Source of the DNA: Giardia intestinalis
Lineage: Eukaryota
DNA length: 5,185 nucleotides
Strand: one strand, 5' to 3'
Assembly (NCBI GenBank): GCA_000002435.2
Contig: AACB03000011.1
The position numbers and the translations under genes are program-made. Positions 1 through 5,185 of the stretch are shown here, one piece after another (within the stretch, counting starts at the first letter, position 1; every line of letters begins with the position of its first letter). A model generated the notes under the pieces. That model saw only the letters and a list, made by a program, of their open reading frames with translations. It was not told the origin of the DNA and did no database searches.

Positions 1-1373
1 ACACGGGGCGCTAGTGGTCATGCTTGGGCACCCTGCCCGCTGTCGGCTGCCCCACAGCGCGCGAACGGACCCCTGGGCCTGCGTGCCGAGCTGTCTCCCC
101 TGGTACTCCTCGCTCGCACCCGAGGCCTCTTGCCCCTATCATTCGGGTGTGCATCACGTCCAGACACGGTGCGATAGATGCCTAGCCGCGATGCCATACA
201 CACTCGACCAGGCCGGGCCAGGCCGGACGCCCCCCTGGATGGCCAGACACCCCGCCCTGCCTACGTTGGGCACTTCCTCGATGGGACTCGTCATCTGCCC
301 ACGCCGCAGCCCGGTGTTCGTCTGTCTGTCCTCCCGGGCAGCGGCGGTCCTTGGGTGCTGAGTCTGGCGAGCTGGTGCTGGGGGAAGAGGCTAGCCCCGT
401 GTGTCATTCGTACCATCGCACCGCGCCGTGCTGATCCCCCCATGGAACTGCCCGCCAGTGGCCGCCTCCGGTCCGGGGCGGCACAGCCCTGGCTCGGGCC
501 ATCCTCTGCTGCAGCGCCCCGGTGCCCCCTGGAGAGGATGGCCGGGTGCTATGTGCTACTGAGCCCTCGGGTGCATCGCTTCCCCACTGCCCCCCCTCAT
601 GTACCCACTCTGGGCGCCCCGGTACAGGGAACCTGGTCACTCTGGCCCTGGCCTCCAGGTGCTTGCCCTCCAATGGGCCATCCCTCATGCGCCTGTGTTT
701 GCCTGGCCCATTCTCCCCTGTCCTCTCTACCTCTCCTGCTCGGTCTCCGCTGGAGTCGCGGTGACGGCTGTTGACAGTCCCGGCCGGGCCCCCAGGTTTC
801 GCTCCATACCTGGGCCACATGCCTCCCACCAGCGCTGGCACCACATGGGTTGCTTGTCACAGATGGGACTGGCACGCACAGAAGAATATGGCTCCACGGC
901 GCTCTGCCGGTCTGTCCTGAGCTGGCGTCATCAGCCTGGACCCGCCCTTAGGGGGCCTCCTCCATCACCCGTGCCTCCCCACACCACCTCCTAAGCCGTC
1001 AGTCTGCTCTCTCAGGCGTGACCTTCTGTCGGCCTCCTGGGCCGTATGGGACCACCGCCCCGCTGCCCCCGCCATCTTGGCCAGACGCCTCCGGTGAGCC
1101 ACCATTCTGGAATAGCACGACACGTGTGGATGGGCTAGCTATGGCGCACGGTCCGCACCCTCCCTTCTCACGGACTCCCGGGGACAGTCCGGACGCGTCT
1201 CCCTTGTCCCCCGAATCGGTGGCCCCGGCCGATCCCCATCGTGCATCCTTATATGGGGCACTGCACACACCTGTCCACGCTGTCCCCTTGGGCCGGCCAC
1301 AGCTCACCCCGTGTGTCGATGGGCCAGAATTTGGGCTCCCCAAACCCCTCCACCCCCAAGCTGTTTCCTCGCC

Positions 1374-2140
1374 GGTTCTCTGGGCTCGCGCTTCCCTTTT
1401 TAGTGCAACAGCATTATGGTGCCTCGCGTATGTGCGCGGTGCAGTGGGCCGGTCTGTAGGCCTGCCTTTGACTGGAATCCTGGATCCCTGGGTTTCTGGC
1501 CCGACGCGTCGTCTTCTACCCCCAAACAGGCCTGCACTCTTCTTGGTCCACGGGCTATTTGTCTCTTTGTTTCCGCGGCCCAGGGCCTGCTGGTTGCGCC
1601 GGGGCGACGCTCATGGTGGATTTTATTTTTTCCAAAATCCAGAATTTGGGCCTGAAGACCGCCCCCGCAGGGCCTGGAGGATGCGGGGAATCGGTCCACC
1701 CACACCATGCGCTCGAGCAAAGGCCAAGCACCCACGCCATCACGTCTCATCCAGGACTCCTGCGCCGCCACGGAGGAGGATCGGCACCTTCGCCATCGAT
1801 CCTCCAGGATGCCCCCCTACCACTCCCCCTCACATGGCACGCCTCCCTCGGGCCTGTATGTCTGCATGCCGCTATGCCCTAACACCGCAGGCCGCCCTCT
1901 CCGCGGATCCACTAACACACAGCCTGCAGCGCCTGGCCCCCCTGGCCGTGACCCGCGCGCCCCCGCGCACAGGAGCATACCCCTGGAGCTGGGGAGAAGG
2001 CCCCCCTGGCCGCGCCCCCGCCGCGAGACCACGCGGGCACGGGGGCTGGGCGCCCCGGGCGGGCCCTTCCCCTCCGTCGTGAGGCTGCCTCCCCTCCAAT
2101 GTCCTTACCGCCTTGCGCGCATATTACGTAGTAAACCGCC
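1374..2140 (+). repeat. Tandem direct repeat, unit 1 (767 bp)
   Basis: Base-by-base comparison with 2148-2915 shows identity apart from one C-run length (C5 at ~1519-1523 against C6 in copy 2). Every six-frame ORF inside is duplicated at an offset of 774/775 bp, for example 1400-1771(-) against 2124-2546(-) and 1555-1743(-) against 2330-2518(-). No coding signal. Confidence 0.96.
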
Positions 2141-2147
2141 TCTGTCT

Positions 2148-2915
2148 GGTTCTCTGGGCTCGCGCTTCCCTTTTTAGTGCAACAGCATTATGGTGCCTCG
2201 CGTATGTGCGCGGTGCAGTGGGCCGGTCTGTAGGCCTGCCTTTGACTGGAATCCTGGATCCCTGGGTTTCTGGCCCGACGCGTCGTCTTCTACCCCCCAA
2301 ACAGGCCTGCACTCTTCTTGGTCCACGGGCTATTTGTCTCTTTGTTTCCGCGGCCCAGGGCCTGCTGGTTGCGCCGGGGCGACGCTCATGGTGGATTTTA
2401 TTTTTTCCAAAATCCAGAATTTGGGCCTGAAGACCGCCCCCGCAGGGCCTGGAGGATGCGGGGAATCGGTCCACCCACACCATGCGCTCGAGCAAAGGCC
2501 AAGCACCCACGCCATCACGTCTCATCCAGGACTCCTGCGCCGCCACGGAGGAGGATCGGCACCTTCGCCATCGATCCTCCAGGATGCCCCCCTACCACTC
2601 CCCCTCACATGGCACGCCTCCCTCGGGCCTGTATGTCTGCATGCCGCTATGCCCTAACACCGCAGGCCGCCCTCTCCGCGGATCCACTAACACACAGCCT
2701 GCAGCGCCTGGCCCCCCTGGCCGTGACCCGCGCGCCCCCGCGCACAGGAGCATACCCCTGGAGCTGGGGAGAAGGCCCCCCTGGCCGCGCCCCCGCCGCG
2801 AGACCACGCGGGCACGGGGGCTGGGCGCCCCGGGCGGGCCCTTCCCCTCCGTCGTGAGGCTGCCTCCCCTCCAATGTCCTTACCGCCTTGCGCGCATATT
2901 ACGTAGTAAACCGCC
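2148..2915 (+). repeat. Tandem direct repeat, unit 2 (768 bp), followed by the A15 tract
   Basis: Identical to unit 1 except one extra C at ~2294-2299. A 7-bp spacer tctgtct (2141-2147) separates the units. The unit ends gcgcgcatattacgtagtaaaccgcc, then cct plus A15. Confidence 0.96.
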
Positions 2916-2938
2916 CCTAAAAAAAAAAAAAAACCATG
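2890..2938 (+). promoter_or_regulatory. Candidate initiator region: AT-rich box (catattacgtagtaaa) plus A15 immediately upstream of the ORF ATG, leaving a near-zero 5' UTR
   Basis: This is the only strongly AT-rich stretch in a GC-rich context, and it ends 2 nt before the ATG at 2936. The same AT-rich box, without the A-run, closes repeat unit 1 at 2115-2140. A promoter role is inference only. Confidence 0.35.
2919..2933 (+). other. Perfect A15 tract, poly(A)-tail-like, at the 3' edge of repeat unit 2
   Basis: 15 consecutive A seen directly. It is absent at the equivalent position after unit 1, so it is not part of the repeat consensus. A retroelement ORF start follows 2 nt later. Confidence 0.93.
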
Positions 2939-3922
2939 CGTTCCGCCCTTTCCGCGCCTTCGGGAACCACGGAGATCGGGGCTTCCTCAGGCCCAGAGCC
3001 TCCCAACCACGCTCCAACCGACTCCCACAGGCCCCTACCTAGGGGCACTCCCGATCCTATGACGCTGGGTGACGGCAACGATGCCTCGACGACCGCCATG
3101 GCCCGGCCTTCCTCTTGCGAGCCCCTCTGCGGCTCCCACGGGCCCCCATCCCCCCAGCCTGGGCCTGGCAACAGCCGTTCCGCCACGGACAACTCTCCCA
3201 ATGAGTCTTCTCCTGTCCATGGCTTACAGGGCTCCGGGGCCTCGGTGGCCCGGGACGCCTCTCCTCCCTGCCTGTCGAACGACCTTCTGCCCTGTGGCCA
3301 GGAGCCCCTCCCGATTCCCGACGACGGCCTCCCATACGACCTGGGCCACGACAACTCCCCGTCCATCACGGACGAGCAGGAGGCCCGGGGCGCAGACCTG
3401 CCTGCTCCTGGGGGCCGTACGACTGTCTGCGAGCGCTGCGGAGAGGTGCTGCCTGACTCTGCGGCGATCGATGTCCACATCGGGATGCACCATCCGCCTC
3501 CCGGTTCACCTTCTCCGTCGCGCAGCCCTTCTCCGCTGTCGGGGTCTGCCCCTCCACCTGCAGCCGCCGAGCCCTCTCCCTCGCCAACGCCGGACCCTGT
3601 GTTCCCGTATGCATGCAGCATGTGCCGGGCCCGATACAAAACGGAGAGGGGGCTGAAGGCCCATATCGCCAGGCTCGGCCACTACCTCCCGCTCGACGCC
3701 ACAGTCCCCGAGCGCATCGGGGTGCCTAGTGGCAGCCCGTCCCCTGAGCTGCTTCGCCTCCTCACTGACGTATTCACAGAGATGGCGGGGCGCCTTCCTC
3801 CTGTAGAGGCCCTAGCGCGCTTCCTCTCGACGTGCCGCCGCATGGAGGGCTCTGGACGGCTCCCCCCGCGCAGTCGCTTCTCCGGAAGGGGCTGCTCGGC
3901 CGGGCATGGCAGGCGCTGTTGA
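2936..3922 (+). CDS. N-terminal ORF segment: Ser/Pro-rich region, two C2H2 zinc fingers and a linker. The true reading probably leaves this frame near 3860-3900.
   Basis: 328-aa ORF in the supplied track starting at ATG 2936. It contains VCERCGEVLPDSAAIDVHIGMHH and YACSMCRARYKTERGLKAHIARLGH. The downstream part, ELLRLLTDVFTEMAGRLPPVEALARFL, has protein-like composition. Confidence 0.7.
   Translation: MRSALSAPSGTTEIGASSGPEPPNHAPTDSHRPLPRGTPDPMTLGDGNDASTTAMARPSSCEPLCGSHGPPSPQPGPGNSRSATDNSPNESSPVHGLQGSGASVARDASPPCLSNDLLPCGQEPLPIPDDGLPYDLGHDNSPSITDEQEARGADLPAPGGRTTVCERCGEVLPDSAAIDVHIGMHHPPPGSPSPSRSPSPLSGSAPPPAAAEPSPSPTPDPVFPYACSMCRARYKTERGLKAHIARLGHYLPLDATVPERIGVPSGSPSPELLRLLTDVFTEMAGRLPPVEALARFLSTCRRMEGSGRLPPRSRFSGRGCSAGHGRRC
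3428..3493 (+). other. C2H2 zinc finger 1 (C-X2-C-X12-H-X3-H)
   Basis: Translated in frame 2: C ERC GEVLPDSAAIDV H IGM H. The spacing is canonical. Confidence 0.8.
3614..3682 (+). other. C2H2 zinc finger 2 (C-X2-C-X12-H-X5-H)
   Basis: Translated in frame 2: C SM C RARYKTERGLKA H IARLG H. It follows the aromatic residue (Y) two positions before the first Cys, as in classical fingers. Confidence 0.75.
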
Positions 3923-4104
3923 GCGAGACGTCCTCTGCCGCCAGGGTCCCCGAGCCCCAGGGCAAGGAGCGGGAAGCGATTGTCCATGAGCTCCACCCGC
4001 GCCCCATGCCTGTCTCTCTGCCCCCCGTCCATCACGTGCTCGGCCCGTCGCCCAAGATAACGGCCAAGGCGCTGCTGAAGGAGCTGCAGGCGATGAGGCC
4101 TGTC

Positions 4105-4332
4105 GCGGCCGGACCCTCTGGGCTGGGGAAGCCTCACCTCCTGCACCTTTGTGGGGCCGCCGGGGCTGCGGAGCTCTTCACCTCTGTCCTGACGACCCTC
4201 TTCTCCAGCAGGAACTGGGCCCAGCTCCAGCCCCTGTGCGAGTTCAGGCTGAAGCTTCTGCCCAAGTCTGGCGGCCGATGGCGCCCTATCGCAGTGCAGG
4301 AGACGCTTCTGGTCGCCTTCCACCGCTTGCTC
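4105..4332 (+). CDS. RT N-terminal fingers segment (frame 1): motifs 1 and 2
   Basis: AAGPSGLGK at 4105-4131 matches the RT motif PGPDGI. RPIAVQETLLVAFHRLL at 4282-4332 matches the R2/LINE motif RPISL......F..IL..RL. Confidence 0.8.
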
Positions 4333-4442
4333 CTGCGTCGGACTCCGCGCTCCGCAAGCTCCCGGCGTGGCAGCTGGCCTTTGAGCACCTCGCCCAGATG
4401 AAGGCGATCCGCGCGGCCGAGGAGCTGAAGAGGACACACCAC

Positions 4443-4481
4443 CTGCTCACGGTGGATGTGCGGAATGCCTTCAACAGCGTC
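4443..4481 (+). other. RT motif A (frame 0): LLTVDVRNAFNSV with the catalytic Asp
   Basis: Matches the consensus hhhhD..KAFD.V. The Asp codon gat is at 4455-4457. Confidence 0.8.
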
Positions 4482-4483
4482 CG

Positions 4484-4650
4484 CATTCCGTCATCCTCTT
4501 TGCGCTCCGCCGGGCAGGGGTGGTCCAGCCGACCGTCGCGTACATTGAGCGTTCCTCGCGGCTCGGCACTCCTCGGACCTCCCGCGGTCCCAGCGGGCGT
4601 GCACAGGGGACCCGCTGTCCATGGCGATGTTCTGCCAGAGCCTTGTTGGC
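4484..4650 (+). CDS. RT palm segment between motifs A and B', read across a frame 2 to frame 1 switch at the gggg run
   Basis: Frame 2 reads HSVILFALRRAGVVQPTVAYIERSSRLGT...GRAQG. Frame 1 reads GDPLSMAMFCQSLVG. The sequence shows caggggaccc where cagggggaccc would give in-frame QGDPLS. Confidence 0.75.
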
Positions 4651-4656
4651 CGGTGA

Positions 4657-4800
4657 GACGTACCTCGGCCAGTCAAGGTCGTTGCATACGCCGACGACCT
4701 CGTCATTGCGTCAGAGGAGGCGATTCCCATAGATACCGTGAAGAGTGACGCGCAGTTCGCCCTCTCCCGCATAGGGCTCACGGTCGAGCTCTCGAAGTGC
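4657..4800 (+). CDS. RT motif C segment (frame 1): VKVVAYADDLVIASEE...ALSRIGLTVELSK
   Basis: YADD at 4687-4698 is the catalytic YXDD box. The following GL.V.LSK resembles the post-YXDD G(L/M).LN..KS segment of R2-type RTs. An in-frame TGA lies immediately upstream at 4654-4656. Confidence 0.85.
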
Positions 4801-5185
4801 TCCTCGACCCAGGCCGGGCGATCTCCTTCATGGGCACCCGCGTGCTCAAGCACTCCTCCTTCAACCTCGCGCAGACATCGGCCCGCCGGCTCCACGAGCA
4901 TCTCGCCGTCCTCCGTGCTTCGGGTCTCTCACTCCACGACCGCCTCAGGCTCCTGTCTGCCTGCGTCGTCCCTGCAGTTAACTATGGACCCCTTGTTGAC
5001 GACTACCCGGCCCGTCCCCCTATGCCGACGTCGATGCGCAGATAGTGGAGGAGGTCGCGACCCTTCTGGAGATCCCCGAACCCCTTGCGAAGACCCTTGC
5101 TCTGACGCCCCGCGCGAAGTACGGCCTCGGACTGGTGCTGCCCATCACTACTACGACGAGATGCACAGGCAGCGCCAGGACATGA
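4797..5185 (+). CDS. RT motif E and thumb segments: frame 0 up to ~5010, then frame 2 to the window end
   Basis: Frame 0 reads VLLDPGRAISFMGTRVLKH...HDRLRLLSACVVPAVNYGPLVDD, which includes the F(L/M)G motif. Frame 2 reads YADVDAQIVEEVATLLEIPEPLAKTLALTPRAKYGLGLVLP, which matches the R2 thumb pattern LDVQI...V...L.LP...PK.....A...GGLAIP. Confidence 0.75.

Follow-up and report, generated by a model that had tools for sequence, protein, structure and literature searches.

Probable junction of two head-to-tail copies of the known retrotransposon Genie 1 in Giardia

Introduction

Genie 1 of Giardia lamblia was reportedly described in 2002 by Burke, Malik, Rich and Eickbush, who are also said to have given the size of its repeat as 771 bp, and the telomeric families GilM and GilT, to one of which Genie 1 corresponds, were reportedly described by Arkhipova and Morrison in 2001 (Mol Biol Evol 19:619 and PNAS 98:14497, respectively). 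The dead family GilD/Genie 2 consists of degenerate copies with substitutions, stops and internal deletions, and with inverted repeats of up to 172 bp. The element family treated here is well characterised and not novel: the order of its domains, the repeat and the arrangement in tandem, like the family itself, were all published in 2001-2002. The GilM unit in WB is 5,474 bp long (PMC7000408), and long 3'UTRs and head-to-tail arrays are on record (PMC5537684). We analysed a stretch of 5,185 nt of Giardia intestinalis DNA (contig AACB03000011.1, assembly GCA_000002435.2), referred to below as the window.

The R2 elements (R2Bm, R2Tg and others; PDB 8gh6, 8ibw, 9nl2, 9nl3 and 9dou) show the same order of C2H2 fingers, reverse transcriptase (RT), CCHC motif and PD..D..K nuclease. 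The likeness of R2 to the protein encoded in the window is low and confined to the motifs (E about 1e-8), and target-primed reverse transcription is presumed to be common to both. In contrast to R2, Genie 1 does not target the 28S rDNA, and it carries a poly(A) tail and a 3'UTR of 2-3 kb. The CRE clade of trypanosomatids (CRE1/2, SLACS and CZAR) likewise includes site-specific elements of protist hosts with a REL-endonuclease, but the target of Genie 1 is not the spliced-leader gene. The RTs of GilM and GilT were placed in the CRE clade by one study (PMC10088271), whereas in other classifications GENIE forms its own clade beside CRE, R2, R4 and NeSL (PMC2790886). Head-to-tail arrays with unusually long 3'UTRs are likewise formed by HeT-A and TART of Drosophila (PMC5537684), in which the 3' end of one copy may drive the next copy, as may also apply to the window. 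HeT-A and TART differ, however, in belonging to the unrelated Jockey clade, with gag plus an APE or no endonuclease, and Giardia has telomerase repeats.

Results

Arrangement of the window

The window very probably represents the site at which two copies of Genie 1 (GilM/GilT) meet head to tail, Genie 1 being the known single-ORF non-LTR retrotransposon of Giardia from the ancient REL-endonuclease group (GENIE, CRE, R2, R4 and NeSL). The elements of this junction, all on the plus strand, are as follows.

1..14 (+): 3' end of the ORF of the upstream copy (ending in the TGR codons and a TAG stop at 12-14), overlapping the L005 ORF end ...aaacgcatcgacacggggcgcTAG
15..1373 (+): 3'UTR of the upstream copy, unique part, colinear with L005 (95%) and L004 (83%) straight after their stops
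1374..2143 (+): 771-bp repeat copy 1 (770 nt, with one C-run shorter), from repeat comparison
2130..2136 (+): AGTAAAC, Giardia-type polyadenylation signal closing repeat copy 1, apparently unused
2144-2147 (+): 4-nt filler GTCT between the repeat copies
2148..2918 (+): 771-bp repeat copy 2, forming the 3' end of the 3'UTR, from repeat comparison
2895..2911 (+): AT-rich patch catattacgtagtaaac, -41 to -25 from the ATG, placed where a Giardia TATA-like element would be expected (presumed role)
2905..2911 (+): AGTAAAC, putative polyadenylation signal, with the poly(A) tract 7 nt downstream
2919..2933 (+): A15, taken as the upstream copy's poly(A) tail and probably doubling as an AT-rich, initiator-like element of the downstream copy
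2936..5185 (+): downstream Genie 1 copy, first 68% of the ORF, beginning at the ATG, reaching the RT thumb region and running past the window end

By contig comparison, the related locus L005 bridges position 5185 of the window to position 1 via 1,053 nt, and because L005 links the window end to the window start, the stop of the upstream copy was placed at 1-14. The full unit can be rebuilt from the window and L005, consisting of an ORF of 3,330 nt and a 3'UTR of 2.1-2.9 kb; this composite unit is 6,251 bp in length, or 5,476 bp if only one repeat is counted. In the upstream copy, the 3'UTR (15-2918, about 2.9 kb) is non-coding and includes both 771-bp repeats. AGTAAAC closes each of them; the two differ by one mismatch and the length of one C-run and recur with a period of 775. 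A second relative, L004, starts with A10-CCC-ATG and ends within the repeat, and a third, L002, contains a pair of junctions of this kind, separated by 2,629 bp and 92% identical. Telomere repeats, (TAGGG)n, were detected neither in the window nor in any relative locus examined.

The preliminary description of this DNA had noted an ATG at 2936 starting 2 nt after a poly(A) tract, and this was found to be the case (A15 at 2919-2933, then CC, then ATG). It had not, however, recognized the poly(A) and the DNA upstream as the 3' end of a preceding copy. Its estimate that the window holds the 5' two-thirds of the element is correct for the ORF (2,263 of 3,330 nt) but not for the whole unit, which also includes the 2.1-2.9 kb of 3'UTR.

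The poly(A) tract and the 3'UTR

Only two matches to AGTRAAY were found in the window on both strands, both at the ends of the repeats. The last 180 nt or so of repeat copy 2 are conserved (76-92%) in L002 and L003, where they likewise precede the poly(A); both loci share the same geometry of AGTAAAT, a spacer of 6-8 nt and then A9; among the relatives the length of the A-tract varies from A9 to A15. The known polyadenylation signals of Giardia are AGUGAA-like or contain UAAA, and are located within 40 nt of the site (PMC3610916). Since AGTRAAY is present only at the repeat ends, one of them 7 nt before A15, and diverged relatives are alike in this respect, we read A15 as the probable poly(A) tail of the upstream copy.

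Searches of the unique part of the 3'UTR (15..1373) with Pfam, Rfam and a tRNA scan gave no match. Rfam (E<=1) and the tRNA scan detected nothing, and the 5' junction thus shows neither an HDV-like ribozyme of the R2 style nor another Rfam family. RNAalifold predicted a fold for the conserved 3' end without usable covariation, the block being invariant among four sequences from three lineages. The long ORFs upstream of the A-run showed no match in Pfam and were treated as spurious products of the GC-rich sequence. Such spurious ORFs of the 3'UTR have been called as genes in public assemblies (P0010 and P0011).

Coding region of the downstream copy

An ORF of 328 aa opens at the ATG at 2936. 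The features of the coding region, together with the primer sites and frame breaks considered below, are located as follows.

3428..3493 (+): C2H2 zinc finger 1 (CERCGEVLPDSAAIDVHIGMHH), aligning with the first R2 finger in 9nl2
3614..3682 (+): C2H2 zinc finger 2 (CSMCRARYKTERGLKAHIARLGH), from motif match
3861..5141 (+): 13 single-base omissions, causing 12 frame changes, from comparison with L005 and L004, whose ORFs are intact
4193..4508 (+): amplicon of Genie1_T7_For and Genie1_T7_Rev, 316 bp, from exact primer matches
4261..4841 (+): core RT domain (Pfam RVT_1; repaired residues 443-639), across several frame changes, with YADD at about 4684-4695

Both fingers are located exactly where the preliminary description had placed them. 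Their spacing follows C-x2-C-x12-H-x3-5-H, the Cys and His residues do not vary among four Giardia relatives, and Pfam zf-C2H2_4 was matched at E=4.8e-6. The AlphaFold2 model of the finger region was weak (pLDDT 58, pTM 0.30) and did not demonstrate a Myb-like domain. All strings of the RT motif series previously listed are present, but they lie in three different frames, and the broken ORF had gone unmentioned. When the frames were stitched together, the coding path matched Pfam RVT_1 at E=1.5e-19. The best protein match was a Giardia duodenalis 'Reverse transcriptase/endonuclease' (E=1.7e-136), a likeness well outside what chance would give.

In a search of PDB, the matches at E<0.1 were five R2 retrotransposon proteins only (E=1e-8 to 3e-7), followed by a group II intron maturase (E=0.15) and Cas6-RT-Cas1 (E=0.41); no structure of an LTR element, LINE-1 or telomerase was matched up to E=1. 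Neither of the outcomes that the preliminary description had named as refuting its reading was thus obtained. L005 and L004, which are independent contigs, each have an uninterrupted ORF of about 1,110 aa, in which the RT is followed by a CCHC motif (CCHCKQPFLPRHHLVC) and then by a REL-endonuclease (QPDLVIG..GDLVVTV..ERSYALKAAKY). This segment, located beyond the 3' end of the window as the preliminary description had anticipated, aligns with the CCHC/nuclease region of R2 in 9nl2, and full-length L004 is colinear with that structure through the fingers, the RT and the CCHC plus nuclease. No integrase, protease, RNase H or APE domain was detected in the ORF of the full-length relative, for which Pfam gave RVT_1 and zf-C2H2 only. 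These comparisons support the earlier assignment of the window element to the R2-like, REL-endonuclease type of non-LTR retrotransposons.

Identity of the element

Two published primers of Genie 1, Genie1_T7_For and Genie1_T7_Rev (PMC1950533), matched the window at 18 of 18 positions each, at 4193-4210 (+) and 4491-4508 (-), respectively, and thus face each other as a primer pair should. The source-named protein relatives in a collection of 5.8 billion proteins (P0001 and P0003) are from G. duodenalis, P0001 being located on the GS contig AHHH01000176. Based on these exact primer matches and on the Giardia origin of the source-named relatives, the window element is, by sequence comparison, Genie 1, which had previously been listed as one candidate among several. 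The relatives and the primers are likewise the basis for assigning the DNA to Giardia lamblia (duodenalis), probably to assemblage A. No protein or gene call of more than 90% identity was present for the Genie 1 family in the same collection, a look-up of the exact product of the 328-aa ORF gave no match, and neither did two metagenome scans, one protein-derived and the other with an exact pattern of 26 nt.

The window shares with Genie 1 the C2H2 fingers and the RT in one ORF, the 771-bp repeat, the array and the long 3'UTR, and its near-identical copies add the CCHC motif and REL-endonuclease. The unit length with one repeat is 5,476 bp here against 5,474 bp as reported. The window differs in lacking 13 bases within the RT region and in carrying two repeat units, against the single one implied by the 5,474-bp unit. 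The dead family GilD/Genie 2 was rejected as a candidate, the window showing no inverted repeats, no stops in the stitched path, omissions of 1 nt only and a dN/dS of 0.17. As to nomenclature, the assignment to GilM or GilT is contradictory: the unit length fits GilM, whereas the citing literature pairs Genie with GilT.

Frame breaks in the RT region

The RT motifs are spread over all three frames, along the path 1>3>2>1>3>2>3>2>1>3>2>1>3, with the omissions located at about 3861, 4345, 4481, 4550, 4581, 4602, 4606, 4647, 4655, 4674, 4816, 5009 and 5141. The window is 97.6% identical to L005 over 4082-5185, with 12 indels and 15 substitutions, and its segment 2936-5185 is 89% identical to 14-2285 of L004. 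In all 12 indels against L005 and in all 13 frame-breaking indels against L004, the 1-nt absence was on the side of the window; three of 12 missing bases were located outside homopolymer runs. The stitched path of 754 codons includes no stop, where the rate of stops off the path would predict about 15.7 (P(0)=1.5e-7). Measured against L004, the clean part has a dN/dS of 0.18 and the broken part one of 0.16. The omissions are clustered in comparison with the remainder of the window (Fisher p=0.001-0.002): none was found in 2936-3860, and within 2,034 nt of UTR there were four single-base indels on the window side and one on the L005 side.

Since every break corresponds to one base missing from the window only, with no stops and a low dN/dS, the 13 gaps are most likely errors in the sequence record and not decay. 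Homopolymer frameshift errors are on record in a Giardia WB assembly (PMC7000408). Programmed frameshifting was rejected, for it would involve 12 shifts that are absent from the copies of 97.6% and 89% identity.

Discussion

The arrangement described above could be explained in another way, in which the tandem 771-bp repeat belongs to the chromosome and not to the element, and Genie 1 has inserted at a specific site between repeats; the element would then extend over about 4.7 kb, from the A-run/CCATG to position 1373 in the unit that follows, without a 3' poly(A). Burke et al. in 2002 are said to be the source of this model of insertion into a host repeat. The junction of repeat copies 1 and 2 is uninterrupted (..aaaccgccTCT-GTCT-ggttctc) and resembles an 'empty site', poly(A) is absent at 1373/1374, and conservation among lineages is higher at the repeat end than in the ORF, as might be expected of a nuclease target; the periodicity of 5,476 bp is compatible with both models. 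On the other hand, an A-run 7 nt past AGTRAAY has the geometry of Giardia cleavage and polyadenylation and is kept in two diverged lineages with different spacers, the length of the tract varies from A9 to A15, and target-primed reverse transcription would give no A-run at the 5' end unless the run had come from a preceding copy as its tail. The citing literature also describes arrays of head-to-tail copies whose 3'UTRs are long (PMC5537684). We consider insertion between host repeats unlikely, though it deserves to be weighed, and prefer the junction of two copies.

The frame breaks, for their part, could be real, the downstream copy being either dead and decaying, as in GilD/Genie 2, or a dead-on-arrival product of error-prone reverse transcription. 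Twelve frame changes within 1.3 kb and the three of 12 missing bases outside homopolymers could be understood in this way, and frameshifted dead RT copies do exist in Giardia, as in L001 and the described GilD (PMC2861651). Decay, however, would hardly produce 13 losses of 1 nt out of 13 events with none in the opposite direction, spare all 754 stitched codons from nonsense, give 12 indels for 15 substitutions against L005, which is far from normal decay, leave dN/dS (0.16) unchanged from that of the intact part, and confine the events to one stretch with none in 2936-3860. GilD was disrupted by microhomology deletions (PMC2861651), none of which was seen here, and a dead copy is accordingly quite improbable in our estimation. 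An RT of another class (LTR element, group II intron, Penelope-like or APE-type LINE) might be suggested by the generic nature of Pfam RVT_1 and by the direct repeats, which are superficially LTR-like. The 771-bp repeats, however, are tandem and upstream of the ORF instead of flanking it, the PDB matches at E<0.1 are all R2 (group II maturase and Cas6-RT-Cas1 following only at 0.15 and 0.41), and the full-length relative possesses CCHC plus PD..D..K and is free of integrase, RNase H, protease and APE; this reading is hardly credible.

With the window taken as a junction of two Genie 1 copies, a mode of propagation and expression can be proposed. From the biochemistry of R2, the nuclease would nick the target and the RT would use the nick as a primer to copy its own RNA from the 3'UTR/poly(A) end, while the N-terminal fingers would help to choose the insertion site. 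Within an array, the TATA-like patch and poly(A) tail at the AT-rich 3' end of the upstream copy could then serve as the short AT-rich promoter and initiator of the next copy. Arkhipova and Morrison, in 2001, may already have suggested the idea of the tail as promoter. Giardia promoters consist of an AT-rich patch at the start site and another about 30 bp upstream, and the 5'UTRs are very short (PMC1885649). The AT-rich patches in the window, at -17 to -3 and -41 to -25, match the positions of this two-element model, and the leader of only 2 nt would be explained if the upstream tail acts as a promoter. We therefore propose, tentatively and as a possibility that falls somewhat short of being the expected one, that the reverse-transcribed 3' end, with its patch at -41 to -25 and its tail at -17 to -3, may constitute the core promoter of the next copy in the array.

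As the family is known, the present analysis is of little value for discovery, its practical value being in annotation: the ORF of the RT region will be missed by gene callers because of 13 probable single-base errors. The way in which poly(A) and ATG are spaced at the junction leads to a simple and testable idea for the transcription of array copies. If this idea is true, only the copies located directly behind the tail of another copy would be expressed, the 2-nt leader that Giardia translation needs would be supplied at each junction, and the array would be self-sustaining.

Identification of the element as Genie 1

The window has a G+C content of 66%, with C exceeding G on the + strand, and carries a 328-aa ORF starting at ATG 2936, located 2 nt downstream of an A15 tract (2919-2933) as in the preliminary description. 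A search for the pattern C-x2-C-x12-H-x3-5-H returned the same two C2H2 fingers, at 3428-3493 and 3614-3682, that had been proposed there; the finger region matched Pfam zf-C2H2_4 (E=4.8e-6), and its Cys and His residues are invariant across four relatives. Every RT motif string quoted in that description was also found, but the strings are spread over different frames. The coding path of the RT ORF, determined by frameshift-aware alignment to Giardia RT homologues and then explicit stitching, contains 12 frame changes in the order 1>3>2>1>3>2>3>2>1>3>2>1>3, all within 3861-5143. The stitched product of 754 residues includes 0 stops, whereas the off-path rate would predict about 15.7 (P=1.5e-7 for none); it matched Pfam RVT_1 with E=1.5e-19. 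The ORF, the fingers and the RT are real features of this DNA.

The RT query detected five protein matches among 5.8 billion, of which the two with a named source are Giardia proteins, one of them 'Reverse transcriptase/endonuclease [Giardia duodenalis]' (E=1.7e-136, about 56-61% identity); the N-terminal ORF query added four further relatives. The Genie1_T7_For/Rev primers, the sequences of which were given by Chen et al. 2007 (PMC1950533), match the window at 18/18 positions each, at 4193-4210 (+) and 4491-4508 (-), and therefore the window represents the Genie 1 element described by Burke et al. 2002. The element is a member of this published family, already known, and not a new variant. 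Window 4193-4508 is the exact amplicon for which Mg2+-dependent 'self-cleavage' of Genie-1 double-stranded RNA was reported (PMC1950533); it spans two single-base omissions (~4345 and ~4481). Searches of solved structures, run once from the single sequence and once from a profile, gave significant matches to R2 retrotransposon proteins only (8gh6, 8ibw, 9nl2, 9nl3 and 9dou; 1e-8 to 3e-7), the next-best RTs being far weaker (group II maturase, E=0.15; Cas6-RT-Cas1, E=0.41). GENIE has been grouped with CRE, R2, R4 and NeSL as ancient REL-endonuclease clades (PMC2790886), and one study placed GilM/GilT in the CRE clade (PMC10088271).

The junction between two copies

The sequence upstream of the A15 tract is organized as follows.

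Features upstream of the A15 tract (given strand)
1-14, last codons of the upstream ORF, including its TAG stop (12-14)
15-1373, unique non-coding sequence
1374-2143, first copy of the 771-bp repeat (copy 1)
2144-2147, 4-nt filler GTCT
2148-2918, second copy of the 771-bp repeat (copy 2)

Copies 1 and 2 differ solely in the length of one C-run and in one mismatch. Counting both strands of the window, AGTRAAY occurs only twice, once at each repeat-copy end, against an estimated 0.2 or so matches per strand from base composition; the match at 2905-2911 lies 7 nt upstream of A15. The related loci L002 and L003, with ORFs about 70% identical, share the junction AGTAAAT, 6-8 nt, A9 and CC(C)ATG. 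Hexamers that resemble AGUGAA or contain UAAA serve as poly(A) signals in Giardia and lie no more than 40 nt from the site (PMC3610916). Because of the AGTRAAY spacing, the shared junctions and these signal rules, the A-run is interpreted as the reverse-transcribed tail of the upstream copy.

The 771-bp repeats are likewise interpreted as part of the 3'UTR of the upstream copy. For the Genie/Gil families, citing literature has described 3'UTRs of unusual length and head-to-tail arrays (PMC5537684). Burke et al. reportedly placed the Genie 1 insertion inside a host repeat array, between its 771-bp units, so that the repeat would not be the element's own, which we consider unlikely. The host-repeat model is echoed in Chen et al. 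2007 (PMC1950533).

The GTCT filler joins the repeat copies, the base before it being T versus C between copies, and is compatible, as a speculation, with an RT template jump creating the duplication. The related contig L005 carries 23 additional nt at window 250. At window 1519, repeat copy 1 has C5 while copy 2 and L005 have C6, which could be real variation or a further run-length error. The GC-rich 3'UTR also includes a 354-aa ORF (1018-2082) with no Pfam match; its homologues P0010 and P0011 (71-72% identical) are annotated as genes in public assemblies, probably spuriously.

Reconstruction of the complete unit

With this spurious 354-aa ORF as query, two gene calls were found on Logan contigs, L004 (SRR30814697; counterpart at 4203-4949) and L005 (SRR32206249; 3332-4075). 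L005 matches window 4082-5185 at 97.6% identity and window 1-2034 at 95-97%; both matches are colinear and 1,053 nt apart, and therefore the 3' end of the window leads back to its 5' end. The end of the L005 ORF, ...DTGR-TAG, coincides exactly with window 1-14. L004, 89% identical, starts with A10-CCC-ATG and carries an intact ORF of 1,112 aa, followed downstream by a homologue of window 1-2021. The CCHC motif (CCHCKQPFLPRHHLVC) and the PD..D..K nuclease (QPDLVIG..GDLVVTV..ERSYALKAAKY), predicted beforehand to lie beyond the window, are present in both of these near-identical copies. L004 aligns colinearly with the R2 structure 9nl2 in fingers, RT and CCHC/nuclease; Pfam detected no domain beyond fingers and RT in the full-length relative.

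The composite unit is 2,263 + 1,053 + 2,935 = 6,251 bp; counted with a single repeat it is 5,476 bp, nearly equal to the 5,474 bp reported for the 'GilM' unit of strain WB (PMC7000408). The unit length suggests GilM as the Gil name for this element, at odds with citing literature that pairs Genie with GilT.

Origin of the frame breaks

The 1,104-nt overlap with L005 includes 15 substitutions and 12 indels, and all 12 indels are single bases absent from the window, at the independently inferred frame changes. The comparison with L004 gave the same 12 omissions plus one near 3861. Nine of the 12 lie inside same-base runs. The clustering of the omissions is significant (Fisher p=0.001-0.002): 2936-3860 (925 nt) has no net frame change, and about 2 kb of UTR compared with L005 shows only five single-base indels, 4 on the window side and 1 on the L005 side. 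If the breaks were genuine, the window copy would be dead, which appears improbable; relative to L004, the broken part has a dN/dS of 0.16 and the clean part one of 0.18. Since the losses are single-base, one-directional, clustered and without a nonsense codon, the 13 omissions are probably sequence errors in this record. For a Giardia WB assembly, frameshift errors at homopolymers have been described (PMC7000408).

Related elements in Giardia

L002 1-2936 (ENA ERZ27287561 k141_210258) has two A9-CCC-ATG junctions at a distance of 2,629 bp, with flanks 92% identical. The RT is missing from the unit, of which only the conserved 3' end and, up to ~1207, the N-terminal finger region are left; L002 is a head-to-tail array formed by a non-autonomous relative with an internal deletion. 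L001 5379-11549 (G. duodenalis GS contig AHHH01000176) contains three adjacent, frameshifted RT fragments of very uneven divergence, two at 30-40% identity and the third at 60% to the window. Dead copies have accumulated in this region, GilD/Genie 2-like elements possibly among them.

Proposed mode of transposition and expression

For this element the domain order, the poly(A) signal with its tail and the tandem arrangement are established. In R2, the nuclease nicks the target and the RT primes on the nick, copying the RNA from its 3' end. By analogy, the nuclease of this element would nick the target DNA, its RT would prime on the nick and copy the element RNA starting at the 3' end, and the N-terminal fingers may help to select the site. 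The conserved terminal ~180 nt of the 3'UTR are a candidate RT-recognition element; no covariation backing an RNA structure was found in this 3' end. Within these ~180 nt lies a G-rich block of ~50 nt, which shows 92% identity to L003 and is kept in both L002 and L003 despite ORFs only ~70% identical. Each repeat carries one such block (2039-2087 and 2814-2862), nearly invariant in L002 and containing a motif of G-quadruplex type (2035-2059 and 2810-2834); the block may act in RT binding or as a G4 element.

In Giardia, a promoter comprises an AT-rich patch at the start site and a second one ~30 bp upstream; translation needs very short 5'UTRs, and AT-rich patches initiate transcription bidirectionally (PMC1885649). 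Near the ORF there are only two such patches, A15 at -17..-3 and catattacgtagtaaac at -41..-25, so the 3' end of the upstream copy probably drives the downstream copy. Each repeat, GC-rich elsewhere, has another AT-rich patch (tggattttattttttccaaaatccagaattt) at its centre (1613-1648 and 2388-2423); given bidirectional initiation, this patch could give rise to the small RNAs, sense and antisense, that have been reported for the Genie family. To what is known of the family, the present analysis adds a reconstructed complete unit, the 13 probable errors diagnosed in this sequence and a reading of the junction between copies.
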